From a virus (Duplodnaviria > Heunggongvirae > Uroviricota > Caudoviricetes): a DNA stretch of 32,286 nt. How positions within the stretch are numbered: the first letter of the stretch is position 1; each line of letters opens with the position of its first letter. The stretch lies in the IMG/VR virus record IMGVR_UViG_3300024272_000027; one strand, written 5' to 3'. Below are positions 1 through 32,286 of the stretch, one piece after another. A program made the translations under genes and the position numbers. The notes under the pieces were generated by a model. It worked only from the letters and a program-made list of their open reading frames with translations, did no database searches and had not been told where the DNA came from.

Positions 1-937
1 ACAACTCACCTCGAGCTACTGATGAATAAGTACATTTGTAATTGTCTGCCCACTTTTTCATCGATTTGATATTTATCTGTTGTCGAGTATTATAGTCCTC
101 AACCGCCTGTTCAAGTGTGAAGCCCATCTCACGAATCTTAGCATCAAGAGCTTCTTGTAATGCTTTACTCTGATTTAAAACATTGCCGTTATCCTTTAAT
201 CTTCTCTCTGATATCATATAAACTTTATTGTCTACAATGATATTACCATAAGCTGCAGCTTGTACCCAAGTAGTCGAGTCGGCTGAAGTTAAAGGGAACT
301 TTTCAAGCACTTCTAATGCAGTACATCCGAAAGCGTGTGTCATAACATCTGGGTTAGGGCTATTCTTGATGATATCAAAACACATCTGCAACCAAGCAAA
401 TCGAGTAGCCGCATTATCTACAGTTGATACCGCAAGTCCTATGTACTTAATATGTTCACCATCTTCAAAAGTATAGTTAAGCATCTTATGTAACCACTTA
501 GTGTCTTCTTCAAAGTGGAATACAGGCATAATCTTATCCCTATACTCAGGCTTAACTTTTGATATCATATATAAGAAGTTTTCCCAACTTTGAGCCGGTG
601 CAGCTGCTAATTCTTCCTCAGTAGGCTCACGACCAATGACCTGAGGAATCTTATCCACTTGAGCATATATAGTTACATAATCGCCGGTGTCATTTATAAA
701 GTTTATGTAGTCATCAACATCAACTTCTTTGCCTTTTGTGTATGCCGTATAAGCACCACTATCCACAAATAAACAAAATGCATTAGGATGTTCTTTAAGG
801 TACTCGATGTCAGATAATATGTGATTACGCTCGTTCAACTGCGAATAAAGTTGGTCACAGCCTAATTCGCGTTTTAGTTCAAGACCCTCTTTTGAACCCC
901 TACCTGCAAAATACAAGTGAAACGGTCCGTTATACAT
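1..937 (-). CDS. dpdA: TGT-fold DNA 7-deazaguanine transglycosylase, phage DpdA type (3' end runs just off the left edge; not in the ORF track)
   Basis: Hand translation from ATG at 937 (GGAGG at 944-948) gives 312 open codons: MYNGPFHLYFAG...LFVDSGAYTAYTKGKEVDVDDYINFIN...AQVDKIP...IMPVFHFEED...YIGLA...THAFGCT...TSADSTTW...KWADNYKCTYSSVARGEL. These match TGT catalytic motifs (DSGA, D-x-IP, H-x-FG, SADS with the nucleophile Asp). No CxCxxC zinc site of bacterial tRNA TGT is visible. From memory it resembles Streptococcus phage Dp-1 DpdA. Adjacent to yhhQ. Confidence 0.85.
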   Translation of the reverse strand, partial: MYNGPFHLYFAGRGSKEGLELKRELGCDQLYSQLNERNHILSDIEYLKEHPNAFCLFVDSGAYTAYTKGKEVDVDDYINFINDTGDYVTIYAQVDKIPQVIGREPTEEELAAAPAQSWENFLYMISKVKPEYRDKIMPVFHFEEDTKWLHKMLNYTFEDGEHIKYIGLAVSTVDNAATRFAWLQMCFDIIKNSPNPDVMTHAFGCTALEVLEKFPLTSADSTTWVQAAAYGNIIVDNKVYMISERRLKDNGNVLNQSKALQEALDAKIREMGFTLEQAVEDYNTRQQINIKSMKKWADNYKCTYSSVARGEL

Positions 938-967
938 TATTAACCTCCTAGTTTATTTTACATTGTA

Positions 968-1000
968 ATTATAATATATTTTTCGGCATAATACAACTAA
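968..1000 (-). promoter_or_regulatory. sigma70/sigmaA-type promoter for dpdA
   Basis: Minus strand TTAG-TTGTAT (991-996), 17-nt spacer, TATAAT (968-973). Same architecture at 5213-5245 and 9702-9734. Confidence 0.75.
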
Positions 1001-1004
1001 TCTG

Positions 1005-1739
1005 TCAATTTATCATTGACAGATAGTTTTTACCGATATTATCTCTCTTCCATTTCTGACATATACCATAACCAATAGGAGCGAACACTGCTTCAAATAT
1101 CAGTTCAAATAAAGCTCCAGTTATAGCACATACAAAACATTGTAGAAGAGTCCAACCAAACAACACTTGGCTAACAATTAACGAGAACACAAAATTGTCA
1201 ACAAATTGTCCGATTGTTGTTGACACATAAGTTCTAACAACAAATACACCATAAGTATCTCTATTGTTGTATAACTTACCAATAGCTGCATTAGTTACAC
1301 TATTAGTAATACTTGCTACAATAAATGCTACCATACTACCAAATACGATATACCAATTACCTTTAACTGTAGCGTCAATAGCTTGATTAACTTCATTCAT
1401 CATTCCAAAATCATAGAATGCACCCCAGTTGCCTGGAATCAATGCAGCTAAGTAAAATAACACCGCTATAACAGCACTAATAAAGGTTGCAACAAGTGAC
1501 ACTTGAACCGATGCTTTAGCACCGAAATGTTTCACTATGATGTCCATACTTAAGAAAGACATCCAAGAAAAAATAATACCGCAGTCAAGCGCTAACCAAT
1601 TATTGGAGAACGCTATTGATTTGTTTGCAAATAAATTCATACAAACAATGGATATCACAAACATTGTTAATACCCAAGCTGGGATATCTTCAAGAAGTGT
1701 TCTAAATTGCTTAAAATAGTTTTTTACTTTATTTATCAT
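1005..1739 (-). CDS. yhhQ: Queuosine-precursor (preQ0/preQ1) transporter, YhhQ/VUT family membrane protein
   Basis: About 6 hydrophobic segments. Family-like motifs ANK..., DIIVKHFG (DxxxExxG-like), RTYVSTTIGQFVDNFVF (RxxxSTxxSQxxDTxxF-like). GGAG RBS at 1747-1750. Next to a TGT-family gene. Confidence 0.88.
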   Translation of the reverse strand: MINKVKNYFKQFRTLLEDIPAWVLTMFVISIVCMNLFANKSIAFSNNWLALDCGIIFSWMSFLSMDIIVKHFGAKASVQVSLVATFISAVIAVLFYLAALIPGNWGAFYDFGMMNEVNQAIDATVKGNWYIVFGSMVAFIVASITNSVTNAAIGKLYNNRDTYGVFVVRTYVSTTIGQFVDNFVFSLIVSQVLFGWTLLQCFVCAITGALFELIFEAVFAPIGYGICQKWKRDNIGKNYLSMIN

Positions 1740-1746
1740 AATTTGT

Positions 1747-1792
1747 CTCCTAAGTTTTATTTATACAGAGGAATATTTGGAATGAACTCTGT
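1747..1792 (-). ncRNA. Candidate preQ1 class I-like riboswitch / translational leader of yhhQ
   Basis: RNA: ACAGAG-UUCAUUCCAAAUAUUC-CUCUGU-AUAAAUAAAACUUAGGAG. 6-bp stem, loop starts UUC and ends C, A-rich tail, loop UUCC can pair with the GGAG SD. Deviations from the canonical aptamer: 16-nt loop, and no loop G for the usual P2 G-C pair. Confidence 0.42.
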
Positions 1793-4267
1793 TTATAATA
1801 CATCTGATAAGAAATCTCTTAACTGCTCTTCAGTGCACTCTTCGTGTTTTGCAGCTATGATGTTGTAGGCATCATTTGGTAAATTTCCAGCGTTAAGCAA
1901 TTTCTTATATTCATCTTGCAATATATTTTTAAAGTCATCATAATACCAACAAGGTGATATTTCAGTATCACACTTGAAAGGAATCTGCACAGTAGGCGCT
2001 GCTGATATTTTCATTATATCTGATAACAATCGTGAAACCTTATCAGCATTTTCTGCAGGACATTCTCCGATAAGCTCATCGTGAACTTGTAACAGCATTC
2101 TAAATCCTAATGCACGTAATTCTTCGCTATCGAAAACTTTACGCATTGCAAGTTTGCTCATTGTAGCCGCTCCACCTTGAACTCGTGAATTGACACTTTG
2201 TCTCTCTGCTTGAGATATGAATGCTCCATTATCTCTTATATCAATCTTATCAAATCGAGCAGCTTCTTTGATTGCATTTACTTGTTTCCAACCTCTTGCA
2301 GCATCTAACTGACTTCGATATTTTTCAATCAACGGATTAACTACTTTTGTTACTAACCCCTTTGAACCTAAGAGCGGATTTATGTCCACTGCATTCTTTG
2401 ATTCACTTTTATCAGTAATAGTATACTGTGGTAAGTTTATATCTGGTAAACGTCTACGACGACCCCAGAAGTCTTCTACATATCCGTTAAGTTTACAGTC
2501 AGCGATAGTTTTATCCATCCATTCGCGAACCTTTGGGAAACCTGTGTAGAAGTCATCAATAATCTTATCAGCTTCTTTAACTGATGCACCAATCTGGTCG
2601 GCAATTGACGCATTACCACGACCATACATAAGACCAAGTAAAATACTTTTACAGTTACCACGTCTTTTCTTACCCATCGGGTTTGGTGAACCGTCCTCAA
2701 AATGCTCCATATTATCCCAGTATGTGTTCTTGTATACACCACAAGCAATAGTTGCATACAAGTCTTTATTCTGTTTGTAAGCTGAAATCATATTCTCATC
2801 TTGAGCATATTCAGCAAGTAGACGCGGCTCTTGTTGTGAAAAGTCTCCACCTACCATAACATAACCATCTGATGCTTTAAACATCAAACGAATTTCTTTG
2901 TTATGGCTCGGGATATTCTGCAAGTTAGGGTCATTGGAACTAAAACGTCCAGTGTCAGTTCCAAGTTGATTAAAGTGTGCGTGAAGTCTGCCATCTGCAG
3001 CATTCACACATCTAGGTAACTTATCAATATATGTACTAATAAGTTTTTCAAGGCCTCGTTGCTCTAAAACAAGTTCACATAACGGATTGTCAATCTTTTC
3101 AAGAATTGCTTCACCTGTTCCTCGTGGTGACTTCTTGTCGATTACGGGTGTACCTAATACATCGTATAGTAGTATTGCAAACTGAGTTGGACTTGTGAGC
3201 TGAGGTGGGTCTTTAAGTTGTTCACTCTTAGATTTCGCATAAACAGTTTCGCCCTTCTTGTTTACTTTTTCGGCTCTAAAGTTAGCTGCATCGGTTTTAC
3301 GCCATTCATTGATTACATCACGATAAGCTTCTAACTGAGTATCAATACGTGATTGCACGTCATCCGCTAACTTATGATATTTCTGGCTTAATCTGTTTGC
3401 ATATTCTATATCAATTTCAACACCTGTAAGTTCCATTTCAGCAGCAACTTCCATAACAGGCATCTCAATATTATGAAATAAATCACTTAATCGTTCGTGA
3501 CCTGGTTGATTAAATTGCAACTGCTGCCACTTATAAAGTTTGTAGGTCATAAATGCGTCAGTAGCTGCATACAATGCAAACAATTCAGGCTCAACAATAG
3601 CATATTCAATATCTTCAAACAAATGGTCGATTGAATATTTTTCAACGGAAGAATCAATCTTATCACGATACTGGTCTTTCAACTTAGCACTCTTTTCGTT
3701 CTCATCAAGAATACGAACAGCTACCATTGTGTCCCAGTAAACTTTTAGTTGAACACCACAAGTACACTTGATAACTTTGTAGTCGAACTTACCGTTGTGC
3801 ATTATTATCTTTGTGCCTACAAGTCTGTTAAACTCTTCTGTTATATCAGCCTCGGTCAACTGATTTTCAAGTCTCTGATATGTAACAGGATTAACGTGAT
3901 TTAAAGGTATATAAGCATTCTTCTGCCCTGGGGTGTATATACAAGGCCCCATAAGTTTACAAGTAATAGGGTCAAGACTGTTATTCGTTTCAGTATCTAT
4001 TGCAATTTCGCCATTAGCAATAGCAGCATCAATATACGCTGTTAATTCTTCACGCGTTCTTATAACTTGTGTATCATCAACAAATCGACCTAATATCTTG
4101 TAAACATTTGTACGAATAGCGTCAAGTTTGTACTCTAACGGAATATTACTTGACTTTATCGCTTTACTGATTACTTTATTAGCATCTTTAGGATTGTTAA
4201 CTTTGTTTATTACTTTTTTAGGAGGAGTCCGCTTTACAACGAACTCCTCACCCCATAATGAACCCAT
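1793..4267 (-). CDS. polA: Family A DNA polymerase (3'-5' exonuclease plus polymerase, no 5'-3' exonuclease)
   Basis: ExoI IAIDTET, ExoII MHNGKFD, ExoIII YAATDA; TGRFSSNDPNLQNIP; motif A DFSQQEPR; motif B KSILLGLMYG; motif C LLQVHDEL. Confidence 0.97.
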   Translation of the reverse strand: MGSLWGEEFVVKRTPPKKVINKVNNPKDANKVISKAIKSSNIPLEYKLDAIRTNVYKILGRFVDDTQVIRTREELTAYIDAAIANGEIAIDTETNNSLDPITCKLMGPCIYTPGQKNAYIPLNHVNPVTYQRLENQLTEADITEEFNRLVGTKIIMHNGKFDYKVIKCTCGVQLKVYWDTMVAVRILDENEKSAKLKDQYRDKIDSSVEKYSIDHLFEDIEYAIVEPELFALYAATDAFMTYKLYKWQQLQFNQPGHERLSDLFHNIEMPVMEVAAEMELTGVEIDIEYANRLSQKYHKLADDVQSRIDTQLEAYRDVINEWRKTDAANFRAEKVNKKGETVYAKSKSEQLKDPPQLTSPTQFAILLYDVLGTPVIDKKSPRGTGEAILEKIDNPLCELVLEQRGLEKLISTYIDKLPRCVNAADGRLHAHFNQLGTDTGRFSSNDPNLQNIPSHNKEIRLMFKASDGYVMVGGDFSQQEPRLLAEYAQDENMISAYKQNKDLYATIACGVYKNTYWDNMEHFEDGSPNPMGKKRRGNCKSILLGLMYGRGNASIADQIGASVKEADKIIDDFYTGFPKVREWMDKTIADCKLNGYVEDFWGRRRRLPDINLPQYTITDKSESKNAVDINPLLGSKGLVTKVVNPLIEKYRSQLDAARGWKQVNAIKEAARFDKIDIRDNGAFISQAERQSVNSRVQGGAATMSKLAMRKVFDSEELRALGFRMLLQVHDELIGECPAENADKVSRLLSDIMKISAAPTVQIPFKCDTEISPCWYYDDFKNILQDEYKKLLNAGNLPNDAYNIIAAKHEECTEEQLRDFLSDVL

Positions 4268-4269
4268 TA

Positions 4270-5181
4270 TTAGTAATAACGGGGACCAGGTCTAACTGGC
4301 GCTCCAGTTGTAGTAGGTGCTTGCCATCCAGGTGCTCCGGTTGGAGGTGTTGGAGGAGCAGGATATGCAGGTGCTACAGGAGCTGCAGTTTCAACAGGAG
4401 TTGCTACAGCGGGCTGCTGATATACAGGAGCACCTGTTTGTGAATAGTCAGGAACTGCAGGTGTAGGAGTTACAGCAGGAGCTGCAGGAGGCATACTTGC
4501 TGCCACACCTTCAGCCTTCGGCTGATAACTCATTGGAGCGGTCGCTGCCTGTTCTGCTGCTGGCTGTTGAGTTCCAGGGAATGCTCCGGTCTGGATGAAT
4601 CCAACAATCTCTTGATAGTTCTTATTAAGAATAATACTACCTAATGCATCGTAATCATTGAACGCATCAGGTACTGGTGGGTATGCTGCATCTGTATATA
4701 CTTTAGGACTGCAGTAGAAAATGTCATAGGTAGTATCCATACTGCCTGCAGCACCGTTACGCTTAATCTTGAATAACGATTCTGATAACGGTCCATACTC
4801 ATCAATTAAATTCTTAAGTTTTGTTGCATAAGAAGTTGAGCGCTCCCAAACAACAGGAGTACCAACCATAGTTTGAGTCTGAGGGTCAAGATTGTACTGA
4901 ACCATATTGATAAAGATTCTAGTACTTGTATTGTTACCTGTATTGCACAACGGACACATTTCAACTGCATCCTGTGGGTTTCTAATACAGTTTATCTTAC
5001 GATATTTTCCTCCGACTGTGATGTTATGTACTGCATAGATATTGAATGAATCAACACTATCGTGCATAATTCTTACGATTGCCTCATCGCCGTCATTTCT
5101 AAGATTAAAGAAATCAAAGGTACCACGACTGCCACCATTACCGCCGTCTGCGGGAATAGCTCCAAATGCGATTTTTGCCAT
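4270..5181 (-). CDS. Single-stranded DNA-binding protein, T4 gp32-like, with Pro/Ala/Thr-rich C-terminal tail
   Basis: FFNLRNDGDEAIVRI, H...C...CPLC zinc ligands, FKIKRNG...DTTY. Located between primase and PolA. Confidence 0.75.
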   Translation of the reverse strand: MAKIAFGAIPADGGNGGSRGTFDFFNLRNDGDEAIVRIMHDSVDSFNIYAVHNITVGGKYRKINCIRNPQDAVEMCPLCNTGNNTSTRIFINMVQYNLDPQTQTMVGTPVVWERSTSYATKLKNLIDEYGPLSESLFKIKRNGAAGSMDTTYDIFYCSPKVYTDAAYPPVPDAFNDYDALGSIILNKNYQEIVGFIQTGAFPGTQQPAAEQAATAPMSYQPKAEGVAASMPPAAPAVTPTPAVPDYSQTGAPVYQQPAVATPVETAAPVAPAYPAPPTPPTGAPGWQAPTTTGAPVRPGPRYY

Positions 5182-5212
5182 TATAAATGCTCCTTTTCAT
5201 TTTGATATCATA

Positions 5213-5245
5213 ATTATATATAATCTTAACTTATATTACAACTAA
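5213..5245 (-). promoter_or_regulatory. sigma70/sigmaA-type promoter for ssb-polA-yhhQ
   Basis: TTAG-TTGTAA (5236-5241), 17 nt, TATAAT (5213-5218). The TAG is also the primase stop codon. Confidence 0.75.
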
Positions 5246-6192
5246 TAACAAGTTAAGGTTTTAACTTCTTCAGGTGTTAAGTCATTCACGTCTTTACCTG
5301 CGGGCACTAAGAAGTCACTAACTACTACGTCATCGCGTATGTGACGTCTAAATCTTCTTGCTCCTTTACGTCCAGCTTCGTCACCATCAAAATATAAATT
5401 AAATGTACGAATGCCACTTTTATTTAACAAATCATATTGATAAGTGGTGCCTGTCCCAAATAAGCATACGGCAGGAATACCGATAGACCATAAGTATAAG
5501 CAGTTTATCTGACTTTCGCACACTGCAACGGACGTAATCTTTTGTTGTAATATGTAATACAACAAATATACAGGCTTTTGTACTGCTTCAGGTATCTGGA
5601 ATCTTTTTGATTTAACATAACGTCCTGTAATAAAAACAAGACCGCCTTGCTCATCTCTCACAGGAAATGTTATCATATCTTTAACAGGGTCATATCCCAC
5701 CTCAAACAAATCAACAATCTCTTTTGTTAACTTTCGATACCACATATAATCGTGATAGTATTCATAGCACTTCAAGATTGATTCATCCATATACTGCTTG
5801 ACAGCACGTTTTTTATCTAATTCAATAGGTGGGAGATAGTCTACCTCAGATAAGAATGCTGTTTGACAGCGCTCAAGTAGCCATTCCTGACCAAATTCAA
5901 TATCAGGTTCATCAAAACAATCTGCAATAAATTGAGGTAACGGTCTCGCATAACCACACGTGAAACAGTGTACAAATCCATACTCTGTTTCTTTATCATT
6001 CGGGTCAGCAAACACCATACACGATGGATGCCTTTCCATACCATCTTTGTGATGTGGGCAAGTAACAGGTATGTTATTACCTCGCATCGCTCCGATGTCT
6101 CTAAGTTTACCATTTGTGAGTTCGCTTCGTAACTGATTTAAGATTGTTTTCATATCTGTTGTAATAACTTTATTACCAATCTTAAGATGCAT
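5242..6192 (-). CDS. dnaG: DNA primase (CHC2 zinc finger plus TOPRIM)
   Basis: CPHH...HCFTCG zinc finger; ITFPVRD; TOPRIM VCESQIN and FDGDEAGRKGA; KDVND. Confidence 0.9.
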   Translation of the reverse strand: MHLKIGNKVITTDMKTILNQLRSELTNGKLRDIGAMRGNNIPVTCPHHKDGMERHPSCMVFADPNDKETEYGFVHCFTCGYARPLPQFIADCFDEPDIEFGQEWLLERCQTAFLSEVDYLPPIELDKKRAVKQYMDESILKCYEYYHDYMWYRKLTKEIVDLFEVGYDPVKDMITFPVRDEQGGLVFITGRYVKSKRFQIPEAVQKPVYLLYYILQQKITSVAVCESQINCLYLWSIGIPAVCLFGTGTTYQYDLLNKSGIRTFNLYFDGDEAGRKGARRFRRHIRDDVVVSDFLVPAGKDVNDLTPEEVKTLTCY

Positions 6193-7457
6193 TAGAACGC
6201 GTCTACTCCTTCACTTTCATACTCTCTAACTAAATCACTAACAGCTTGCGGATTACTACTAGTTTCATCATTCGGAATATATGTAAATATACCCTTATTA
6301 AAATCAACTGCATACTGCAGATGTTTACCGTTGATAGCATCACGAGCTTTTACAAGATTAAGAGTTAAAACTCCATCTTTTTGCTCTAAGAATATAACAA
6401 CAGTACTGTCTTGTGATATACGGTCAGATTGAGCTACGTGAGCTGTGGTTTGACCGCCTTCAGTTGATTCACGATTTTGCTGTGATACTGCAATAATAGG
6501 TATATGCTTTAATACTTGTAAATTCTTCAAGTCTCTCGAAATGTTAGCAGCCTTTTCAACAGGACTACGAGCACCACGGTCATCTTCAAGTAAAGAATGT
6601 TGGTCTACACAAAGTATATCAAGTTTGTCTTTCTCAATAAATGCTCTTAAAGCAGTAACCCCTGCTGCACCATTTATCATAGCGGGTGTTAGTATCTTTA
6701 TACTACCTTTATACTTGTTAGGCAATTCTTCCATATATCTTTTATATTCAACTTGTACAGAATCGTTACCACGCATAATAGCTGTGTTAGAGATATGTGA
6801 AGCTAAAGTATCAATACGATAACCAACTTTATTCTCACTCATCTCACCAGAATAGATACCGACATTTAAACCTTGTTCGGCTGCCGCTAATGCTATAAAA
6901 TGTAATATCCACGATTTACCGATACCAGGTCGAGCAACGATAGTTGCCAATTCCTCTAAACGGTCCCATCCTCCGATAAGTTCGTCAAGTTCTTTAAATC
7001 CTGTTTTTATGTAAAACTTATTATAATCGTTACATTTTTCAACATAAGCATTATATCGTGAAGTGTCTTTGAATATATCTACAGTGTCAAGATGTGTTGA
7101 TTCAACAATATCCGATGCTGCAGATGTGTACACACGCATAGCCTCATCAGTCTTATCCTGATTTAGTAGTTCACGAACACGATTAAAAACTTTTGCTAAC
7201 TTTCGTTTATTATAATCTTGATATAGTTCATCAATAAGATATGTTGTAGTTTCACTAACATCAACAACATCAAACTCAGGAAATTTGTCCACAAAAGAAT
7301 GGATATCCGGACAATTTCCATATTTATCAATATGCTCTTTTATCCACTTGAATTCATACTTGTAATCGCTAAAAAATTCATCTGTTAGATTATTCATTAA
7401 CAATAATGAAGTATCTTTTGTTGTTAATAGTTTATTTAGAAATTGTAGTTGTACCAA
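6192..7457 (-). CDS. dnaB: Replicative DNA helicase, DnaB family
   Basis: Walker A IVARPGIGKS, YSGEMS, Walker B ILCVDQ, VSQQNR, SDRISQDS, KARD. TTG start. Its stop overlaps the primase ATG (TAATG). Confidence 0.93.
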   Translation of the reverse strand: MVQLQFLNKLLTTKDTSLLLMNNLTDEFFSDYKYEFKWIKEHIDKYGNCPDIHSFVDKFPEFDVVDVSETTTYLIDELYQDYNKRKLAKVFNRVRELLNQDKTDEAMRVYTSAASDIVESTHLDTVDIFKDTSRYNAYVEKCNDYNKFYIKTGFKELDELIGGWDRLEELATIVARPGIGKSWILHFIALAAAEQGLNVGIYSGEMSENKVGYRIDTLASHISNTAIMRGNDSVQVEYKRYMEELPNKYKGSIKILTPAMINGAAGVTALRAFIEKDKLDILCVDQHSLLEDDRGARSPVEKAANISRDLKNLQVLKHIPIIAVSQQNRESTEGGQTTAHVAQSDRISQDSTVVIFLEQKDGVLTLNLVKARDAINGKHLQYAVDFNKGIFTYIPNDETSSNPQAVSDLVREYESEGVDAF

Positions 7458-7460
7458 ACG

Positions 7461-8147: not shown

Positions 8148-8150
8148 ATG

Positions 8151-8867: not shown

Positions 8868-8868
8868 T

Positions 8869-19683: not shown

Positions 19684-20049
19684 TTATTCATCTGTCATTA
19701 ATCTAATCTGATATAGATTAGGTTGATTATCTATTTTATTTATACAATTGATGGTGGCGTATAAAGCCGTCTTATCGTGTGTTATAACTATATCTTTTCG
19801 TGTTAAAGATAGTTGAGGCATAAATATCTGAAGAGACACATATATGTCATCAATAATCAAATCTCTTAGCACAACATTATTCTGTTCATATATAAAACGC
19901 TTTAAGTTAGTTCCAAAATAAGGGTCACCAAATAGTGATTTTTTCCAAGAAGCTAACAGTAATTTTAGATTTGAACACGTTGCTTCTTTATCTTCAACTA
20001 ACAGTGTTCGTGAGGTTGCAAACATTTCAGGGAATGCAATTGAAAACAT
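19684..20049 (-). CDS. Baseplate wedge subunit, T4 gp25 / P2 gpW-like
   Basis: LFGDPYFGTNLKRFIYEQN; size and position typical. Confidence 0.85.
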   Translation of the reverse strand: MFSIAFPEMFATSRTLLVEDKEATCSNLKLLLASWKKSLFGDPYFGTNLKRFIYEQNNVVLRDLIIDDIYVSLQIFMPQLSLTRKDIVITHDKTALYATINCINKIDNQPNLYQIRLMTDE

Positions 20050-20051
20050 TT

Positions 20052-21086
20052 CTATTCCTCCAATTTAAAAAATAATTGACCAGTAGTTGGATTACTAGGA
20101 GTGGTCTTTCCGTATAAACCTGATGCGAGGACCATTTTTGACAAGTTTAGTAATTCAGAGTGTGAATGACTACTACCGGAGTACTCGGAGTGAGTGTGAT
20201 TACTGTCCGCTTTACTATTCCAATTAGTTCTATCTTGAGAACTCACGTGCATAGTACTATCGTTCTTATGAGTGTTCCAAGTGTTCTTATCGGCAGCACT
20301 CACGTGTATATCCGAATTATTGATATGACCATTCCAAGCACCACGTTCATTCTCACTGATGTGTTTTAACTTTTGAGTATTCGTAACTCCAGATTCGTTG
20401 ATATGATTATTTAAGGATTGTTTTATATTATCCGTAATTAAGTACATCCCTGTAGCAGGATTGCTTCCTTGGGCAGGGTCACCTAATTCCTTATCCAAAT
20501 CATCTACGTCCGATTTAAGCTCGTTTAAGTAATCTGAAAGGTCTTCAATATCCTCTTCACTTACGGTTACACGTTGTTTAAGCACATCAGCCGCATAATC
20601 CGATGCTATATCGTGTTCTTTCATATATATGATACTATCGTTTATGTTATTTATATCAACAGTTATATCATTATGAAATCGAGTATTCTCTTCAAATGTA
20701 TGTTTAATAGACTCCTGCTGACCTAACAACGTTTGAATACTTGAAGGTGAGACAGCTCCGATATTTGTATCTGTCGGCAAAGTAACGTTAGTACTAACTA
20801 CTAGACTTGTAGGTTTCATATCACTTTGTAATTTTTCAGCTGTCTCATTCATTAGTGCTCCTATTATTACGGGAGCACTATAGTCTGTATTTTCAAATAA
20901 TACAAAAACCGCACATCCTGTTATATAAGCGGGAATCACCCCTGGTGGTGTGCAAACAGTAGCTGTGTATAACTCAGAGTCAGGAGTTCGACCCACTGCA
21001 GAACCACTTTTGTTTATTGAAGGGATTCTAACTGTGTAATGATATGCGTCAAGCTTATTCACAATGAAAGCTCTTTGAATTGTCAA
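20052..21086 (-). CDS. Baseplate central spike (gpV/gp5-like OB fold, coiled coil, His-rich repeats)
   Basis: N-terminal YTVRIP...PGVIPAYITGCAVFVLFENTDYSAPVIIG; heptad region; C-terminal H-x-H motifs. Between hub and gp25. Confidence 0.7.
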   Translation of the reverse strand: MTIQRAFIVNKLDAYHYTVRIPSINKSGSAVGRTPDSELYTATVCTPPGVIPAYITGCAVFVLFENTDYSAPVIIGALMNETAEKLQSDMKPTSLVVSTNVTLPTDTNIGAVSPSSIQTLLGQQESIKHTFEENTRFHNDITVDINNINDSIIYMKEHDIASDYAADVLKQRVTVSEEDIEDLSDYLNELKSDVDDLDKELGDPAQGSNPATGMYLITDNIKQSLNNHINESGVTNTQKLKHISENERGAWNGHINNSDIHVSAADKNTWNTHKNDSTMHVSSQDRTNWNSKADSNHTHSEYSGSSHSHSELLNLSKMVLASGLYGKTTPSNPTTGQLFFKLEE

Positions 21087-22347: not shown

Positions 22348-22668
22348 TTATATATCAAACTCAATATGACTAAAAGTTGGAACTTTCAAATGTGCACCTA
22401 CTTCAAGTTTTTCATAAGGGTCTTGAATCTTATTAAAATCTGCAATTATCCAATAGTAAGTAGGATTATTATAATAGTATAATGATAAAGTATCTAGTGT
22501 ATCACCTGGCTCTACAATATGTGTAACAAAATTCTTACCTTCTGTTATTAAGTGAGATGTTACGCCGTACACATATTTGTTATCCAAGCGATTGTAATAG
22601 TATGGAAAAACAGAGTACCTTGATACTCTGTCATAACTTTTATATTGTTTTTCTGTTAAAATATTCAT
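22348..22668 (-). CDS. LysM-domain baseplate protein (P2 gpX / T4 gp53-like)
   Basis: HIVEPGDTLDTLSLYYYNNPTYYWIIADFNKIQDP...LKVP. Confidence 0.88.
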   Translation of the reverse strand: MNILTEKQYKSYDRVSRYSVFPYYYNRLDNKYVYGVTSHLITEGKNFVTHIVEPGDTLDTLSLYYYNNPTYYWIIADFNKIQDPYEKLEVGAHLKVPTFSHIEFDI

Positions 22669-22670
22669 TC

Positions 22671-23249
22671 CTAAGCCCTCCAGAATGTGCGCTCTAGTTT
22701 AGTATCTACTCCTCTAAAGCTACCTGCAGATAATATTGTCTGAGCATCATAAGGGTCAACTTCTTCCACCGTAAATGAAACTGATACGTGTGCATACTTT
22801 TCATTTGCTAATACAGGTGCTTGATATGTTACACCAACAGAACCTGTTACAACACCTTTTATAAATATATCATTACCAAAACGTACTGCAACCATTGGCG
22901 GGTCAACCATTTTTTCGGAAGCACCATAAGCGGGTAAAGCAGCTGCTTGAACAAGCTTGATAAGTGTATCAACATAATCGTCTCCTGTAGCAACTGTAGC
23001 ATTACTCACTTGCCAGTTTATTTGAGACATCATATCTCTATGCAAGTCAAGATTTATCTGTAGCGAACGAGGTCCAGAATGACTATAGGAGTATATAGGA
23101 GCGGACCTTGCCATCGGAGTGCTGCTATTATATGTTACGCCTATCTGGTCATTTAAACTATCAGGAAAAGTAGGTATAACTATAAACTGGTCAACGTGAT
23201 ATAGATATATATAATTATCAATCATTCTAAAAATTTGTGATGTTGGCAT
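22671..23249 (-). CDS. Tail tube initiator / baseplate-tail junction protein (P2 gpU / T4 gp48-54-like)
   Basis: RSAPIYSYSHSGPRSLQINL...DPPMVAVRFG...GVVTGSVGVTY...VSVSFTVEE. Confidence 0.68.
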   Translation of the reverse strand: MPTSQIFRMIDNYIYLYHVDQFIVIPTFPDSLNDQIGVTYNSSTPMARSAPIYSYSHSGPRSLQINLDLHRDMMSQINWQVSNATVATGDDYVDTLIKLVQAAALPAYGASEKMVDPPMVAVRFGNDIFIKGVVTGSVGVTYQAPVLANEKYAHVSVSFTVEEVDPYDAQTILSAGSFRGVDTKLERTFWRA

Positions 23250-24799: not shown

Positions 24800-27700
24800 A
24801 CTAATGTTCTGTCGTTAAGGTTTGTCACGTAGTTTGAACCATCAGCTTCTGTGTCAACTTGTAAACGTAAGCCATCTTCGTTTTGAACGCGTACGTGTGC
24901 TTGAGCGTGGTCATCTTGACCTAAGAATAAAGCGTACAAATCACCAATAGTTTTAACTGCGGCTCTTGAATCAGATGAATTAGCGCCCATAGCTTTTACA
25001 ATAGCTTTAGCTAAGTCATTGTAGTTAAACTTAACTGTGGTTGCTGTAGTAGGCATCTTTGATACTTCTACCACATTTGACCCTTTCATTGCATTACGCG
25101 ACGCTGTGTTTATATCCACAAGTACACCAGTACTATTACTACTTTTTACTTTCAAAGACTGTGTTGCTACGGCACTCGCAATAGCCGATGCTGTTGGTGG
25201 GTCTTTGGCCATATTAGTAACCTTGGCAGATAATGTTTTACCGCTAATGGCATTAGCAATAGCATCTGCTGTTGGAGGAGCACTTACCATATTAGTAACA
25301 GTTGTTTTTAAATCATCTTTATTAAATTTAAACTTATCTAAAACACCCTTCACTGTTGCGTCATATACAGCCAATTTTGATTTACCTGAAGCTGTTCCAT
25401 AACTGTCAATAGCACTGTCAACTACAGCGAGTTTACTCTTACCACTGCCACTAACAAAGGCGTCTAATCTATTGTCATAAACATTTAACCACTTACCATC
25501 TTTAACAACTGAAGCAGTTCCGAATACTGTTTTTAAGTTGCTGTCCGTTGTTGTAAGTTTGTCAGAAGACACATTTTGCACAGATAGGTTTTTACCTGAG
25601 ATAGCCGTAGCAATCTGTTCTGCGGTAGCAGGGTCTTTAGCCATATTTGATACGGAAACATCTAGTCCGCCACTATCAAAACTTAAGTTGCTTAGCACTC
25701 CGTAAACAGCACTATCATAAACACTTAAAGTACCTTCAACAGTAGATTTATATTTGTCAATCGCTAAGTCTGTTACAGATAAAGAACTGCTACTCTTTCC
25801 TACAATAAAATCACTTAAATGATTATCATAAACATTGAGCCAAGCATTATCTCTAACAAGAGAACTAGCTCCAAAGACTGTACGCAAGTTAGTGTCGTGA
25901 GTAAGTAAACTAACTTCTTTAAATGTCATTCTGCTGTCTCTAGTATGTAAGAAGTTGCTACCTGTGTTCTGGAATACTTTAAACAAGTGTTCTTCTTTAA
26001 CTCTCTGCACACCAGAACCTTCTGAACCTTCCACGGTTACTTTATAAACGTCATCAATAGTTTTGCCAGGGTCAGAATTTTTATTAGTTATTTTCTTAGT
26101 TTCTTCGGCATCATCTGTTGCGGCATTAAGCGTAGATGATTCCATATCAGATGAGTTACTTGTTGTTATGTAAGTGGCTTGAGTTGTGTCACCTTGTGAT
26201 GCACCGAGTGCAAAAGCATTAGATGAGCCACGTTTAGTATACTCAGTGCCGCCCCACGCATCAAGATTAGTACCTCCTAGTGAGCCTAATCCAGCAAACA
26301 TATTGCCTACAAGTGACACAGCTGATGACAGCTGTAGTCCTAGGTTCATTAAGTCTTGAACTGATGTGTTTAAGTCTAAACCGAACCCAGCCGCATTGAT
26401 AAACGGTATATTCATATCAATGTTATTGTCTTCCATAAACCCTAACATCTTATACATACCGTATGTAACTGGGTTATTCATTAAATCTTCTGCTACACCG
26501 AAAATTACGTTGTTGTATAGATTGTCAACCATCTCAGTCAAACTAGTTCTAGAAAGTAACTTCACAAATTGACTGTTCAGTTCACTTTCCATTGCCCCAT
26601 AGCTCAATGATTGACTTGAAATATTTGAAATATCTCCTGCTGATAGATTGCTAATAGCTTTCATATCAGACATTGACAGATTAAATACATCACCATAAGC
26701 TGCACGAACTACTTGATTGTCTGAGTTTTCAGCTATATCTTTAAGATAAGACATCATACCTTCAAGTAATCTATTTGTGGTTTCTGCGTCTAATCCTTTG
26801 ATTAACATATCAGAATAACTTAACCCAGCTTGTGAAGCACTCATTGCTATAAGTGTCTGTAACTGTGAATTACTTGCGAGACTTGTTACGTCACCTGTCG
26901 CTAGATAGTTGATTCCTGTTGCAATTTGATTTATTGTCTCAGAAGACATACCCACAGAACTTAGAGAGCCTAACCATTTCTGTACTATATATTCAAACTG
27001 TGCTGACATATCACGCGTCATTGTTGCGTTAGCATCAATGATAGCAGATGATACTTGGTCATACATATCATTCAAGTAACTTGAATCTTGGAACATACCG
27101 TTGAAGAATTTAGTTAAGCTGGCTTCCATACCTAAACGAGCAGCAGTTGTGTCTGCTTGTTGTAATCTAATAAGTCTTAATAAGTTAGCATCAAAAGCAT
27201 CAAAGGTATTGGCTATCTTGTCACTTACAGTTTGTAAGAATGCTCGTTGTTCAACATTGTAAGCAACACCTTTATCAACAAGCTCCTTCATATTTTCAAT
27301 TACTTTTTGAGATTTTACAAAAGGACTTAAAGAAAGGTTACCTGATATAACTCCCATTACTTCTTTATAATTAGTATCGGACCCTTGTAACCTAGCGTCA
27401 ATATGCCCTTTATAAGTTGTAAGCATACCTTCAACTTCATCAAAAAGTTTATCTCTAGTTTGAGCAAAATTCTCTATATAGCGAGCTTTAGTCTCTTCAG
27501 CTCTAAGTTGTTTCTTAGCTGCCTCCGCCTCAGCTTTTGCAGCCGCTACCTCCTCTGAATCTTCTGCAAATCCAGCTTCAAGTAAAGCGTTCACATTAGC
27601 TTCGGCAGCTTCAGCTGCTTCTTTCTGAGCTTGAACAACTTTCTTCTGCTCGTTGATAAGCTGTTGAAATGTCCCTTCATTGATACCAGCAATTGAATGA

Positions 27701-28323
27701 GCAACTTGTACAGCGCCTTCAAAAGAAGGTTGCTTTGCAAAATCTTTCACGCTTTGACCGAGTTCTTTAAACTTCTTACCTTGTTCAGATTTTTCCAGTT
27801 TTATTGCTTGTTCACGAGCTTCTGATTCTGCTTTTACACTCGCTAATACTTCTTTTTTATGTTTTTTAGTTAAGCTGATACGTGTTGCGGTATCAGCTTC
27901 TGCCCATTTCTTATGATATATAGCTTCCTTAGTTTTACGGTCTTCGGCTATTTCGTTAGCTTGCTGTTTCTTAAGTTCCGCTTTATGAAGTACAGTAGCT
28001 CTCTTATACTGATTGGTACGATAAGCTAGAGTGGCATCCATAGATTGGCGATGTATTTGTTGCTCTACTAAAGCAATCTCATCTTCAATCTTCTTAGTGG
28101 CTTGTCCTGAACGCTTAGCAAATTCAAGGTCTTGTTGTAATTTAGCTAACCCCGATTTTTTAGCAATTTCAAGTCGCATCTTCTCATAATCTGAATATGC
28201 TCCAAGTAACGACTTAAAACGCTTATTACTGCTCACGTCATTATCAAACATCTGACGTTGCTGTGCGTTGTCGTTTCGCTCTGAGTTAACTCCATTTGCA
28301 GCATCATTCATATAATTAGCCAT
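24793..28323 (-). CDS. Tail tape measure protein with repetitive C-terminal domain
   Basis: Long Ala/Lys/Glu/Gln-rich helical N-terminal two-thirds; position after the chaperone pair and before the baseplate genes. Confidence 0.78.
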   Translation of the reverse strand: MANYMNDAANGVNSERNDNAQQRQMFDNDVSSNKRFKSLLGAYSDYEKMRLEIAKKSGLAKLQQDLEFAKRSGQATKKIEDEIALVEQQIHRQSMDATLAYRTNQYKRATVLHKAELKKQQANEIAEDRKTKEAIYHKKWAEADTATRISLTKKHKKEVLASVKAESEAREQAIKLEKSEQGKKFKELGQSVKDFAKQPSFEGAVQVAHSIAGINEGTFQQLINEQKKVVQAQKEAAEAAEANVNALLEAGFAEDSEEVAAAKAEAEAAKKQLRAEETKARYIENFAQTRDKLFDEVEGMLTTYKGHIDARLQGSDTNYKEVMGVISGNLSLSPFVKSQKVIENMKELVDKGVAYNVEQRAFLQTVSDKIANTFDAFDANLLRLIRLQQADTTAARLGMEASLTKFFNGMFQDSSYLNDMYDQVSSAIIDANATMTRDMSAQFEYIVQKWLGSLSSVGMSSETINQIATGINYLATGDVTSLASNSQLQTLIAMSASQAGLSYSDMLIKGLDAETTNRLLEGMMSYLKDIAENSDNQVVRAAYGDVFNLSMSDMKAISNLSAGDISNISSQSLSYGAMESELNSQFVKLLSRTSLTEMVDNLYNNVIFGVAEDLMNNPVTYGMYKMLGFMEDNNIDMNIPFINAAGFGLDLNTSVQDLMNLGLQLSSAVSLVGNMFAGLGSLGGTNLDAWGGTEYTKRGSSNAFALGASQGDTTQATYITTSNSSDMESSTLNAATDDAEETKKITNKNSDPGKTIDDVYKVTVEGSEGSGVQRVKEEHLFKVFQNTGSNFLHTRDSRMTFKEVSLLTHDTNLRTVFGASSLVRDNAWLNVYDNHLSDFIVGKSSSSLSVTDLAIDKYKSTVEGTLSVYDSAVYGVLSNLSFDSGGLDVSVSNMAKDPATAEQIATAISGKNLSVQNVSSDKLTTTDSNLKTVFGTASVVKDGKWLNVYDNRLDAFVSGSGKSKLAVVDSAIDSYGTASGKSKLAVYDATVKGVLDKFKFNKDDLKTTVTNMVSAPPTADAIANAISGKTLSAKVTNMAKDPPTASAIASAVATQSLKVKSSNSTGVLVDINTASRNAMKGSNVVEVSKMPTTATTVKFNYNDLAKAIVKAMGANSSDSRAAVKTIGDLYALFLGQDDHAQAHVRVQNEDGLRLQVDTEADGSNYVTNLNDRTLVW
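25144..25902 (-). repeat. Tandem 117-aa (351-nt) protein repeat plus 26-aa sub-repeats in the tape measure C-terminus
   Basis: DTNLRTVFG...WLNVYDNHL...SNMAKDPATAEQIATAISGK versus DSNLKTVFG...WLNVYDNRL...TNMVSAPPTADAIANAISGK; the N codons start at 25890 and 25539. A third TNMAKDPPTASAIASA follows. Confidence 0.9.
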
Positions 28324-28344
28324 TGTACCTCACCTCACAATAAT

Positions 28345-28569
28345 TTATTTTAGCCCCATATTTCGTAACTGGGTGTTTCTAACCTCATTCTCGTGTTCTA
28401 AATCTCTGCGGATAAACTCAAGAATGTATTTTCTTTCTATTGGAGTAATCTTACCTAAATCAAAGTAAGATGTGTGTATGTGTTTTGATATAAGATAACG
28501 TTCCTCTACAATCTGTTCATATCGAACAGGTCCATAAGGTTTGCCATCAGATGTCAATAGAGGGTCCAA
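28345..28569 (-). CDS. Tail assembly chaperone, downstream part (gpT/gpE'-like)
   Basis: RYLISKHIHTSYFDLGKITPIERKYILEFIRRDLEHE pattern; overlaps the upstream chaperone by 23 nt; immediately precedes the tape measure gene. Confidence 0.6.
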   Translation of the reverse strand: MDPLLTSDGKPYGPVRYEQIVEERYLISKHIHTSYFDLGKITPIERKYILEFIRRDLEHENEVRNTQLRNMGLK

Positions 28570-29305
28570 AAAACTCCTTTGTGATACGAAAGGAAGTATT
28601 ATAATCTAACCCACAGATTGGACATTTTAACTCAACGGAAGTTCTAATTCCAAAACTTTCTACTAGTTTTTGAGCGTGTTTCATTATAAAGTTAGTATCC
28701 ATCATAGGAAGTGCTCTTACAAAATCTTCACGCTTAACAGGGTCAAGTTTTTGACCGTCAACACTTTCAATTAGAGATTGCAAAGTAAATAAAAATGCAG
28801 TATCCCCTGATGTTCCTTTTGACTTCTTTCTCAACTCGTTAGTACGGTCATTGATGTCGTCAATCATTCGAGGAGTCTGCATTCTGATTCTTATACGTTT
28901 TTGTGTTCTAGGCAATGTAAATTCAAGACACTTTGCAAACTCAGCTTCATCGTACTCCACAACTTCAAGTTCGTTTAAATTAAGTGTGCCGTCATTTTCA
29001 GATTGGCAATATGGACACACTGATGTATTCTCGTAGTTAGGGCCATAAGTAACAACACGTAACTTATGTAACAAAAACTGATAATCAGCCAAGCACATAT
29101 CATATGAAGATATGCCAGGGTTCTCTAGTAAACAATCATCAATAACTTCGCAAAGGTTCTTGTAAGCCTTGTCAGAGGGGGCTAATCTCTTCATCTCTTC
29201 TTCTGTTGTCATACTTCTGATTCTAACAACAGGGTTTACATTCTCAGAATATACTTTACCTCTAGAAGGTAACACATATTCTTCAGCAATACTATAATTT
29301 GTCAT
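28547..29305 (-). CDS. Tail/baseplate assembly chaperone, T4 gp26/gp51-like
   Basis: YVLPSRGKVY...IRSMTTEEE; CPYC and CPIC; position before the tape measure gene. Confidence 0.72.
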   Translation of the reverse strand: MTNYSIAEEYVLPSRGKVYSENVNPVVRIRSMTTEEEMKRLAPSDKAYKNLCEVIDDCLLENPGISSYDMCLADYQFLLHKLRVVTYGPNYENTSVCPYCQSENDGTLNLNELEVVEYDEAEFAKCLEFTLPRTQKRIRIRMQTPRMIDDINDRTNELRKKSKGTSGDTAFLFTLQSLIESVDGQKLDPVKREDFVRALPMMDTNFIMKHAQKLVESFGIRTSVELKCPICGLDYNTSFRITKEFFGPSIDI

Positions 29306-29326
29306 TTTGTATCTCCTTTATAGTAA

Positions 29327-29360
29327 TTTATAATTGTACACATAATAATACAATTATAAA
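29327..29360. repeat. 12-bp inverted repeat upstream of the chaperone/tape-measure operon
   Basis: TTTATAATTGTA (29327-29338), 10 nt, TACAATTATAAA (29349-29360). Confidence 0.6.
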
Positions 29361-29377
29361 CACTATGAAAAGAGGTA

Positions 29378-30202
29378 TCAAAGTTGGTCGTCAGGATTTT
29401 CTTCTTCTATATCATCGGGGTCTTCAGAAGGAGTATCATCTTTTGAAGCAAAACGAATACCTTGTTTATTACCTTTTTGGAAACGTGTTCTATTCTGGTT
29501 ATAAGTATTAGCTGCGTCAATAGTATCAACATCATCTTCACTTGCTAACATATCAGAACTGTCAGTATCTTCAATAGGTAGTTGGACTGGCTCTGAATAC
29601 TCGCGTCCGAATACAGCTGGGAATATAATATCAGCATATAGTTTTTGGTAGTGATGTTCCATATATCTTATGTAGTTTGAAATCACACGAGCAACACGAA
29701 TAATCCAACTTGTGTTATTTAAAACAAGCAATACGTGTTTACAAGCACTCCCTAAACTGTCGTCAGGATTAGTGATGTCAGAAGGACGAGTTTCAGGTGC
29801 ACCACTGTTAAAATCATTGCGTGTGCTATAGTATGCAAACCTATACGTGAAATCAGGACAAGTACAATGAATGTAAACATCATCTTTATTAAATCCAATA
29901 ATAGCAGCTCGCGAGATATCTCTAAAATCTACAGATGATTTTCCACGAGTCTGGTCACGGAGTATAGCAAGAAATCCACCGAAAGTCATTCTAACAGTAT
30001 AATCATCCGTCTCGCCGTGGACAGGTAAATTAACAGTTAAGATGTCATCTTTAAATAACTTATTCATATCAATAGAATTCATTGCTTTAACAGTATTAGC
30101 CACACGAGATTTATTTCGCTTGTTAAAACGCTCTTTCCCTTTTTGTGACGATTTGGATTTAGCTAATAGTTTCTGTCGATTGTCCTCATATAATCTATTC
30201 AT
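29378..30202 (-). CDS. SWIM-type zinc-finger protein, unknown function
   Basis: CTC-x38-CKH (29735-29866); acidic C-terminal tail. Start at ATG 30202 (MNRLYED) with AAGGAG RBS. Confidence 0.6.
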   Translation of the reverse strand: MNRLYEDNRQKLLAKSKSSQKGKERFNKRNKSRVANTVKAMNSIDMNKLFKDDILTVNLPVHGETDDYTVRMTFGGFLAILRDQTRGKSSVDFRDISRAAIIGFNKDDVYIHCTCPDFTYRFAYYSTRNDFNSGAPETRPSDITNPDDSLGSACKHVLLVLNNTSWIIRVARVISNYIRYMEHHYQKLYADIIFPAVFGREYSEPVQLPIEDTDSSDMLASEDDVDTIDAANTYNQNRTRFQKGNKQGIRFASKDDTPSEDPDDIEEENPDDQL

Positions 30203-30226
30203 AAACCGCCACTCCTTTAACATTAA

Positions 30227-30258
30227 AATAATGGGAGAATAAGAATTCTCCCATTATT
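30227..30258 (-). terminator. Perfect 14-bp hairpin after the tail tube gene (terminator/attenuator or processing stem)
   Basis: AATAATGGGAGAAT-AAGA-ATTCTCCCATTATT; on the minus strand the GC core is followed by AUUAUUUU. Confidence 0.65.
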
Positions 30259-30280
30259 AAATACAATATATTGAGTTGTA

Positions 30281-30865
30281 TTAGAGTACTTCGCTTAAAT
30301 CAATTTCTGCTCTATCATATTGAATAGTGCAAGAAATCTGATGTTTGTCACCACTATCAGCTGTGTACTCGCCTTCACTTAAAGCTGAAATCCAACATCC
30401 GTAAAGTCTCCAAGTTCTAACTTTACGATAGTCAGGTGTGTACTCGATTAAATAACAATCTTTCTTATAATTTGTTACATCAAGAGCACCAACTTTTTCA
30501 GTGCGTACATTGTAAGAAAGATTCTGCCAAGCTTTCAAGATTGACTTAATATCAGCACCAATATAGTCATTAAAGTCGATTGAACCTTCTGAGAATGAAG
30601 GAACTCCTGCGTACTTTAATGTACTGTTACCACGTTTGATATTAACAACTTCTTGTGTAAAGTGTGGCACAAATGCTTTTGTAACAGAAAGTCTTAACAT
30701 TTCCTGAGCATTTTTAATCTTTGCGTTCTTTTCAGTTCCGATAGCACCTGCACGAATAATTCCGTCAATATCAGTAACAACGAATTCAAAGTTATTTTGT
30801 CTTTGAATTTCAAATAACTGAGGATTATCGGCTAAGTGATAAGTACCAATTTGTGTTGAAGCCAT
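30281..30865 (-). CDS. Tail tube protein, T4 gp19-like
   Basis: RQNNFEF, KYAGVPSFSEGSIDFND, ILKAWQ, YKKD, RTWRLYGCWIS, TIQYD; directly after the sheath gene. Confidence 0.9.
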   Translation of the reverse strand: MASTQIGTYHLADNPQLFEIQRQNNFEFVVTDIDGIIRAGAIGTEKNAKIKNAQEMLRLSVTKAFVPHFTQEVVNIKRGNSTLKYAGVPSFSEGSIDFNDYIGADIKSILKAWQNLSYNVRTEKVGALDVTNYKKDCYLIEYTPDYRKVRTWRLYGCWISALSEGEYTADSGDKHQISCTIQYDRAEIDLSEVL

Positions 30866-30886
30866 TATCTAATCTCCCTTTCTACT

Positions 30887-32286
30887 TTATTGTACTGTTA
30901 CTTCATCGTCATCTTGTAATACGACTGTAACGTAGAAGTCTTCAACAGCATATACAGGATATAGATAAATCTTAGCACATAATGTAGCCTTTTCATTCGC
31001 TCTTTCGTGCTCAGTGTCTCTAACAAACTTGTAACCTGATATACCGTAACCTGAAACCATTCTGTCAAGAGTAGGAGCAATAGCTGCCTTAAAGTTAACC
31101 CAAAGGATATCGTTGTTCTGTTCAAAAGTTAACTTACGAGCGGTTCTATAACAAATCTTCTTAACATCACTTATAAGGTTTCTAACATTTAAGAATGATG
31201 TAGCAACTAAGTTTTCATCATTTCTTTTTAGAGTTCTATTACCCCAGATAACATTTCCATAAGGTTTGATATCTGTAATAGCATTTACTGCGATACCTAC
31301 GCGTCCATCAAGACTGCTACGTGGTTGCATCCAATCAGCAGCACCATTTGTAATCTTTGTAGTAACACCGTTATCACTCAGATTCTGAAGAGCACCACGA
31401 CTTGAACCTGCAATAGCTAACCAAGGAGCATTTGTTTTAATTGAATCCGCTAATGCACCAAGATATGCAAAACTTCCTGCTAGACGAATTGGAGAATCAT
31501 TTACTATACCGGTTGTGTCACGGTCTGAAGTTGTACGATTAAATACGCACCAAGGTGTAAACATTGCTCCAAATTCACCATTTGAACCATCAGAATTTAA
31601 AGCACTGTTAGTAACTGATTTGTATAAGCTGCCAGCTTTATCAACGTTATTTTCACGGTCAGGATTATCTGTGTGGTCAATTAAAGCAACACAATCCCCG
31701 CGTTTTTCTGCAAGAGCTAACATTGCAGACATTAAACTGTTACCGTTATATTCATAAACTGGATATCCACCGGAGGTTAGATATTTGATATTGTAATTTC
31801 CTCTATCAACTAATCCTTCAGTATCACTTAGATTAAATATCTCTGTAAGTGATTTATACATATTAACTATTGAAATTGACTCTTCTATTGCAAATACGTC
31901 AACTCTATGATTTGTAAGTGCTGCATAAGTTACAGCAGTGTCAGAACACTCGCATTTATATATACCATTACCATCTTTAGTAATTTCAATAGGCACGTCA
32001 ACGGTTGTGCGTTCATAATAATCAAGATGGTAACGTCTATCCCAATATTCTGGATATTCTGTAATAGGCTCAGCACTCATTGCGGGACAGTCAGTAGTTA
32101 CACGATTGCCTCTAGCATCATATACATAAGGAACTCCGCTACTTGTAGTACCATTTGTACTGTAGTACTCTCCTGCTTTTATGTAAATATACGATTGTGG
32201 GGTAACTTCGTAACCCTTTGCATCTCCTGCTAAAGTTACTTCACTTAAGTTAAATTTCACAGCGCCTTCATCAGTACTTAAATCAG
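30887..32286 (-). CDS. Contractile tail sheath protein (5' part lies off the right edge)
   Basis: GAMFTPW, APWLAIAG, YGNVIWGNRTL, FLNVRNL, FEQNN. The frame stays open beyond the track start at 32260 (DLSTDEGA). Confidence 0.93.
   Translation of the reverse strand, partial: DLSTDEGAVKFNLSEVTLAGDAKGYEVTPQSYIYIKAGEYYSTNGTTSSGVPYVYDARGNRVTTDCPAMSAEPITEYPEYWDRRYHLDYYERTTVDVPIEITKDGNGIYKCECSDTAVTYAALTNHRVDVFAIEESISIVNMYKSLTEIFNLSDTEGLVDRGNYNIKYLTSGGYPVYEYNGNSLMSAMLALAEKRGDCVALIDHTDNPDRENNVDKAGSLYKSVTNSALNSDGSNGEFGAMFTPWCVFNRTTSDRDTTGIVNDSPIRLAGSFAYLGALADSIKTNAPWLAIAGSSRGALQNLSDNGVTTKITNGAADWMQPRSSLDGRVGIAVNAITDIKPYGNVIWGNRTLKRNDENLVATSFLNVRNLISDVKKICYRTARKLTFEQNNDILWVNFKAAIAPTLDRMVSGYGISGYKFVRDTEHERANEKATLCAKIYLYPVYAVEDFYVTVVLQDDDEVTVQ

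Follow-up and report, generated by a model that had tools for sequence, protein, structure and literature searches.

The DNA analysed here, a window of 32,286 bp with 35.8% G+C, belongs to a single IMG/VR virus record of 161,507 bp (IMGVR_UViG_3300024272_000027, rated 96% complete and called G000 below), in which it occupies G000:C1:114145-146430 on the minus strand, and neither of the palindromes GATC and CATG occurs anywhere in it. Two gene modules are recognizable in the window. The replication module encodes a family A DNA polymerase, SSB, a primase, a DnaB-type helicase, a DnaC/DnaA-like loader and an SNF2 helicase, and has a YhhQ-type transporter gene and a DpdA-like gene at its end; the module for a contractile tail and baseplate encodes a sheath, a hub, weak gp25-like and P2 gpI-like baseplate matches and a LysM protein. 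The polymerase gene, polA (1793..4267, minus strand; Pfam PF00476 and PF01612), served as the marker for related loci. A megablast comparison of 12 kb of the window with GenBank phages gave no match.

Both strands of the window contain 0 GATC and 0 CATG. Dinucleotide-preserving shuffles predict 86.5 +/- 9.7 and 132 +/- 10.6 occurrences, respectively, and a maximal-order Markov model predicts 106 and 82. The absence that had been noticed in a sequence-only reading is thus real, with about 80-130 of each word expected, and the figure of roughly 100 of each given there was a fair estimate. The same reading had listed other 4-bp palindromes and GANTC as present, and all of the remaining 4-bp palindromes do occur, as does GANTC, 66 times. 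What it had missed is that the purge extends beyond the window to the whole genome: where about 510 GATC and about 451 CATG would be expected, the full 161,507-bp record contains 0 and 1, respectively, and both words fall below the 10% of composition-based expectation under which a word counts as eliminated. The 211 open reading frames (ORFs) that were called cover 91% of the genome, and permutation of synonymous codons within genes would still yield 343 +/- 14 GATC and 302 +/- 14 CATG (z = -25 and -22), so that the full-genome count bears out the absence against both Markov and codon-shuffled nulls. The 13.8 kb of non-coding DNA likewise contain neither word, with about 42 of each expected, and none of the 26 tRNA genes holds GATC or CATG; among the 23 tRNA genes of a relative described below, G002, four hold GATC and four hold CATG.

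The words are avoided mainly through codon choice that depends on the neighbouring codon. Within the window, Asp before a codon starting with C is written GAC in 61 of 61 cases, and His before a codon starting with G is CAC in 32 of 32; the two examples cited for this rule, the His-Asp pair CAC GAT at 2078-2083 in polA and the His-Val pair CAC GTG at 20244..20249, are genuine and in frame on the minus strand. ATC is never used for Ile after a G-ending codon (0/124), and Met never follows a C-ending codon (0/199). The same holds genome-wide. All 226 Asp codons that precede a codon with initial C are GAC, compared with 27% elsewhere; where the next codon starts with G, His is written CAC 167 times and CAT once; ATC for Ile after a G-ending codon is found in 0 of 545 cases; and Met follows an NNC codon in 0 of 962, though 13.6% of codons end in C. 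The codon pairs NGA-TCN and NCA-TGN, for which 72 and 121 occurrences were expected, are both absent. Depletion is seen in each of the three frames and extends to non-coding DNA and tRNA genes, with the protein mostly kept by synonymous choice. The context-dependent codons and the codon-shuffled null together uphold the earlier claim of strong selection against both palindromes.

The only CATG of the genome lies 125 bp past window position 1, at G000:146555-146558 (L119:555-558), in the codons GTA CAT GGA of a short-chain dehydrogenase gene directly after DpdA, and is created by a single base, the G at G000:146558. Independent samples yielded 18 contigs that encode an identical polA protein, and six of these, five from JGI samples and one from an ENA assembly (with a k141_ contig name), were compared with G000 as DNA and proved 99.98-100% identical. 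The phage is present in JGI 3300023371, 3300018475, 3300024270, 3300024303 and 3300022661 and in SRR7031497. All four contigs that cover position 146558 have A rather than G there, giving CAT AGA (His-Arg, compared with His-Gly in G000). In two of the four this is the sole difference from G000, and in the other two there is an additional mismatch or a contig end that is not homologous. Because A is found in four of four independent assemblies, the usual genotype has no CATG at this site, and the CATG of G000 is a private variant or an error.

One further word, ATTAAT, is strongly depleted in G000, and it is the only one; the sequence-only reading had overlooked it. It occurs eight times, compared with 64.6 expected from a Markov model (about 12%) or 172 from base composition, and its sole occurrence in the window is at 19697..19702. 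AATT, TCGA, CTAG, GGCC and GCGC are moderately low.

A search with polA recovered 80 related loci in IMG/VR at 39-78% identity, in which words were counted over about 20 kb each, and five relatives, G001 to G005, were analysed as whole records. GATC is absent or nearly so in L001/2/7, L008/76, L010, L012, L014, L017-19, L028, L040, L043, L053, L062 and L080, and normal in L003/4, L016, L020/21, L024-26, L029/30 and others; still other polA-related lineages are without ACGT, CTAG, TCGA or GTAC. No polA-related locus has lost CATG completely, the minimum being 3 where 25 were expected (L044), a complete purge of CATG being peculiar to the G000 lineage. Among the whole records (observed/expected counts), G001, with 76% polA identity, has GATC 0/474, ATTAAT 11/74 and CATG 265/558; G003, with 69%, has GATC 1/381, ACGT 35/152 and CATG 152/462; G004, with 63%, has GATC 3/232, ACGT 3/178 and CTAG 46/191; and G005, with 61%, has GATC 2/204, ATTAAT 3/96 and CATG 114/239. 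G002, with 71% polA identity, retains GATC at 419/604 and CATG at 396/495; no word is driven near zero in it, and its depletion of the DraI-type word TTTAAA (27/71) amounts to a different purge fingerprint. The partial CATG depletion in the relatives shows no regional pattern of the kind that recombination patches would leave, the remaining sites being evenly spread along the genomes. On a polA tree (FastTree, 71 rows) GATC-free status requires at least nine changes, at least five of them forced by well-supported branches, a count that is approximate, as the tree is a quick one with some long branches. Such patchy, lineage-specific purges are what pressure from host restriction predicts.

Although removal was mostly silent, avoidance of GATC has measurably reshaped the proteins of these phages. 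Asp followed by Pro, His or Gln must be written GAC-C if GATC is to be avoided. The observed/expected ratio of Asp-(Pro/His/Gln) is 0.52-0.61 in five GATC-free genomes and 0.80 in G002, and in pooled loci it is 0.54 for 15 that are GATC-free and 0.88-0.89 for 53 others, with the control dipeptides Asn-(Pro/His/Gln) and Glu-(Pro/His/Gln) at 1.0-1.15; the loss in GATC-free lineages comes to about 40%. His-(Val/Ala/Asp/Glu/Gly) stands at 0.62 in G000, compared with 0.77-0.86 in pooled relatives. Ortholog alignments give a weak signal in the same sense for GATC, Asp at positions that are GAT-C in G002 being kept in G000 at a rate of 0.45, compared with 0.56 for other Asp (Fisher p = 0.017), and no signal for non-synonymous removal of CATG (His conserved at 0.54 vs 0.53).

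The gene content says something of the phage on which this selection has acted. Contractile-tail genes (28547..32260, minus strand), comprising a baseplate hub (PHROG 150), unnamed ORFs and a tail sheath (PHROG 23), identify it as a myovirus. A LysM-domain protein of 106 aa, encoded inside the baseplate/tail block (22348-22668, minus strand), suggests that the virion binds peptidoglycan, consistent with a Gram-positive host. The phage has its own polA, primase, helicase, loader and SSB as well as 26 tRNAs, and no tyrosine integrase or serine recombinase was found in the 96%-complete record; the lack of lysogeny genes points, indirectly, to a non-temperate (virulent) lifestyle. The closest cultured polA relatives, at 35-40% identity, are phages of Clostridium, Streptococcus (Dp-1, MS1) and Bacillus, and a match at 60% identity comes from human faeces. 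The phage comes from gut samples, animal or human, and probably infects a Firmicute, a member of the Clostridia.

At the level of sequence the genome bears every mark of restriction-site avoidance, and this is very probably what it represents: avoidance in a virulent myovirus with a genome of about 161 kb, under long and strong selection from host enzymes. Direct observations are the purge, the codon mechanics behind it, the agreement between independent assemblies and the way in which relatives differ by lineage, and from them we infer restriction enzymes as the agent, the enzyme families concerned and the host. Enzymes of the host would cut at GATC and CATG and, less completely, at ATTAAT, so that any phage lineage with such a word would be cut on entry; every occurrence would in time have been mutated away, and new ones would be cleared by purifying selection. 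The matching enzymes would be MboI, DpnII and Sau3AI for GATC, with methyl-dependent enzymes of the DpnI type possibly contributing, NlaIII and FatI for CATG, and AseI and VspI for ATTAAT. The phage was found to have no match to a D12 (PF02086) or N6_N4 (PF01555) methyltransferase, which favours restriction inasmuch as no such enzyme could protect the sites instead, and no sign of self-protection by a Dam-like or CATG methyltransferase of the phage itself was seen.

Some points weigh against this interpretation. The phage carries DpdA, which might have made avoidance needless; in addition, a survey of viral genomes saw no avoidance in phages with hydroxymethylcytosine (PMC6286503). The host was sought by way of a NadR-like gene specific to G000, which led to four contigs of metagenome-assembled genomes (MAGs), three from Clostridia and one from Paludibacteraceae. 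No DpnII-family gene was found in the four MAGs; the matching contigs share only accessory genes with the phage, show purges of their own and look like other phages binned with bacteria, not like host chromosome.

The phenomenon itself is well known, indeed textbook, which the sequence-only reading had not recognized, and the present case, a very clean one, changes no concept. The genome of Staphylococcus phage K is free of GATC. The genome of phiX174 also lacks GATC entirely, and there Dam-directed mismatch repair in enterobacteria has been discussed (PMC5014478); the present phage is about 30 times larger and probably infects a Firmicute, and as it is without CATG too, mismatch repair does not explain the loss of that word. 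Rusinov et al. 2018 (PMC6286503) found recognition sites eliminated entirely or almost so in about one-tenth of viral genomes, with most avoidance concerning orthodox Type II sites and with elimination rarer in temperate than in non-temperate phages. The phage resembles their cases in that short palindromic Type II words fall below 10% of expectation, in having no integrase and in a pattern that varies between lineages, and GATC, the word most commonly avoided there, is purged here as well. It differs from them in carrying a DNA-modification gene and in that 161 kb have been cleared of two 4-bp words at once, for which about 960 sites would be expected, with a 6-bp word standing at 12% of expectation. 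The purged set of GATC, CATG and ATTAAT makes a testable prediction of the host's restriction repertoire and may help to pair this uncultured gut-phage clade with hosts when methylomes or catalogues of restriction genes become available for gut Clostridia. The clade also offers a natural series for the rate and the protein cost of purging, with at least nine GATC switches, partial and complete CATG purges and a loss of about 40% of Asp-(Pro/His/Gln).

A more elaborate form of host pressure has perhaps a small chance of being right, namely a two-sided trap in which hosts alternate between enzymes that cut unmethylated and enzymes that cut methylated GATC or CATG, as with DpnII- and DpnI-type cassettes. 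Total loss of the sites would then be the only stable state, and neither a phage methylase nor partial deazaguanine modification would help. If so, purge fingerprints would be heritable barcodes of host restriction repertoires, usable to pair the clade with its hosts, and the selection would be strong enough to rewrite proteins, as in the loss of about 40% of Asp followed by Pro, His or Gln.

It is improbable that methylation itself is what was avoided. On that account a Dam-like host methylase (GATC) and a CATG adenine methylase would mark phage DNA, and the marked sites would be penalised by DpnI-type enzymes in the next host or through replication, repair or packaging; with hosts alternating between cutting methylated and cutting unmethylated GATC, site loss would again be the sole safe state. 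GATC and CATG are both targets of adenine methylation, and the lack of a D12 or N6_N4 methylase in the phage fits this explanation too. Moreover, under-representation of GATC is seen in each of the 46 phages with hosts that encode the corresponding GATC enzymes, classed as Type IIM (PMC6286503). However, ATTAAT and the words that relatives have purged (ACGT, CTAG, TCGA and GTAC) point to ordinary Type II pressure, and in sequence alone avoidance of methylation and avoidance of cutting of unmethylated DNA look the same. To our knowledge, there is also no methyl-dependent enzyme that acts at CATG.

Far less probable still is that the phage makes a GATC or CATG nuclease of its own, or both, directed against host DNA, to which it would be immune for want of sites. 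Nothing positive speaks for this beyond two lineage-specific ORFs (199 and 307 aa) that lack a family assignment and a single HNH protein. The HNH protein is generic, and its ortholog with 52% identity occurs in G001, which retains 265 CATG, so that it was rejected as the cause. No gene of the DpnII or MutH/Sau3AI family was found in the phage, and ten of the largest G000-specific ORFs proved to be NAD-salvage or BspA-type leucine-rich-repeat proteins or to have no family, with no match in a defence library and none fitting a defence or restriction model.

The gene for a RecU-like resolvase of 156 aa precedes an ORF of 188 aa that contains a DPPW motif (L119:3147-4186; G000:C1:149147-150186); this ORF matches only the start of the MT-A70 model and does so below threshold (21.6 bits, where the cut-off is 23.9 bits). 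This MT-A70-like and RecU-like pair is kept in G001, G002 and G004 and was rejected as a cause of the purge, being conserved in G002, which retains both words.

The genes for deazaguanine modification deserve separate consideration, since the sequence-only reading had suggested that the purge might reflect or constrain the contexts in which DpdA acts. The window encodes a DpdA-like DNA guanine transglycosylase of 313 aa (2..937, minus strand, with its last codons beyond window position 1), which matches PHROG 887 'queuine tRNA-ribosyltransferase' (E 7.9e-49) and has no Pfam match, and a YhhQ/Vut_1-type precursor transporter (1005..1739, minus strand; Pfam PF02592, E 1.2e-21). QueC and QueD were not found in the phage, and any deazaguanine modification therefore depends on a precursor made by the host or imported. 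The presence of the DpdA-like and transporter genes within the window is what speaks for a purge that follows from the deazaguanine system, whether through limits on DpdA target contexts or because modified G is incompatible with the words, but this can be given almost no credence. It is largely refuted by G002, whose DpdA is 78% identical and whose GATC (419/604) and CATG (396/495) are near normal. GATC-free relatives occur both with and without DpdA adjoining polA, a search of the whole G003 record found no DpdA, and GATC-normal relatives that carry it are common. The earlier suggestion finds no support here, and in this clade carriage of DpdA neither requires nor accompanies loss of GATC or CATG.

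The deazaguanine phages iggy, CAjan and 9g (PMC10484667) likewise encode DpdA, and their modification leaves part of the sites unprotected: of the dPreQ0 phages, both iggy and CAjan are still cut at BamHI (GGATCC), and iggy also at NcoI (CCATGG). By analogy it is plausible that deazaguanine modification would leave GATC and CATG uncovered and that host systems acting on these words would not be blocked by it, as the sequence-only reading had proposed. Unlike in those phages, modification is here predicted from gene content, QueC and QueD are lacking and a YhhQ-type importer is present, and the passages of PMC10484667 consulted do not mention site avoidance this deep. DpdA itself is only 36-37% identical in G001, the closest relative by polA. 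DpdA and the dehydrogenase share 78% and 70% identity with their G002 counterparts and only 37% and 45% with those in G001, and YhhQ shows the reverse, with 60% to G001 and 36% to G002; lineages have exchanged the modification cassette.

A sequencing or assembly artefact, such as systematic miscalls at modified motifs, for which nothing speaks, is refuted on two counts, codon usage and agreement between independent assemblies: the changed base varies with the reading frame, replacement is synonymous with the protein preserved and the affected residue classes (for example, Ile after G-ending codons) still present, and assemblies from several samples and pipelines are 99.98-100% identical. The frame-dependent, synonymous changes fit selection on the DNA word.

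Other features of the phage and its relatives are of interest in their own right. In several relatives, including L017 (10001-13572), L018 and L019, the polA match extends over about 3.57 kb for 822 residues, which implies that polA in these and others holds a putative insertion of about 1.1 kb (an intein, intron or homing element), which the polA of the window does not have. The G000 lineage specifically encodes a BspA-type leucine-rich-repeat protein of 409 aa (L128:8400-9629; G000:C1:95400-96629; PF13306, E 2.7e-40), which may be host-binding or surface-mimicking. Also specific to it is an NAD-salvage set consisting of a NadR-like protein (cytidylyltransferase and AAA_28), a PnuC nicotinamide-mononucleotide transporter and an isochorismatase/nicotinamidase-like protein, encoded at G000:C1:69606-71439 (L127:16606-18439) and G000:C1:50678-51217 (L126:17678-18217). 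The set was not found in G001-G005; its NadR-PnuC pair is present, at 73-77% identity, on contigs that were binned with genomes of Clostridia and Paludibacteraceae, and the set may counter NAD-depleting host defences.

Site purges were also encountered in phage-like DNA binned with bacteria (observed/expected counts). A 70,430-bp phage-like contig, G008:C165 (L143-L146), in a MAG labelled Eubacteriales, has CATG 0/211, CTAG 1/69 and GGCC 11/119, a sign that pressure directed at CATG arises repeatedly in communities of gut Clostridia. In a MAG labelled Ruminococcus, the 10-kb contig G007:C14 has GATC 0/41, ACGT 0/33 and GGCC 0/22.

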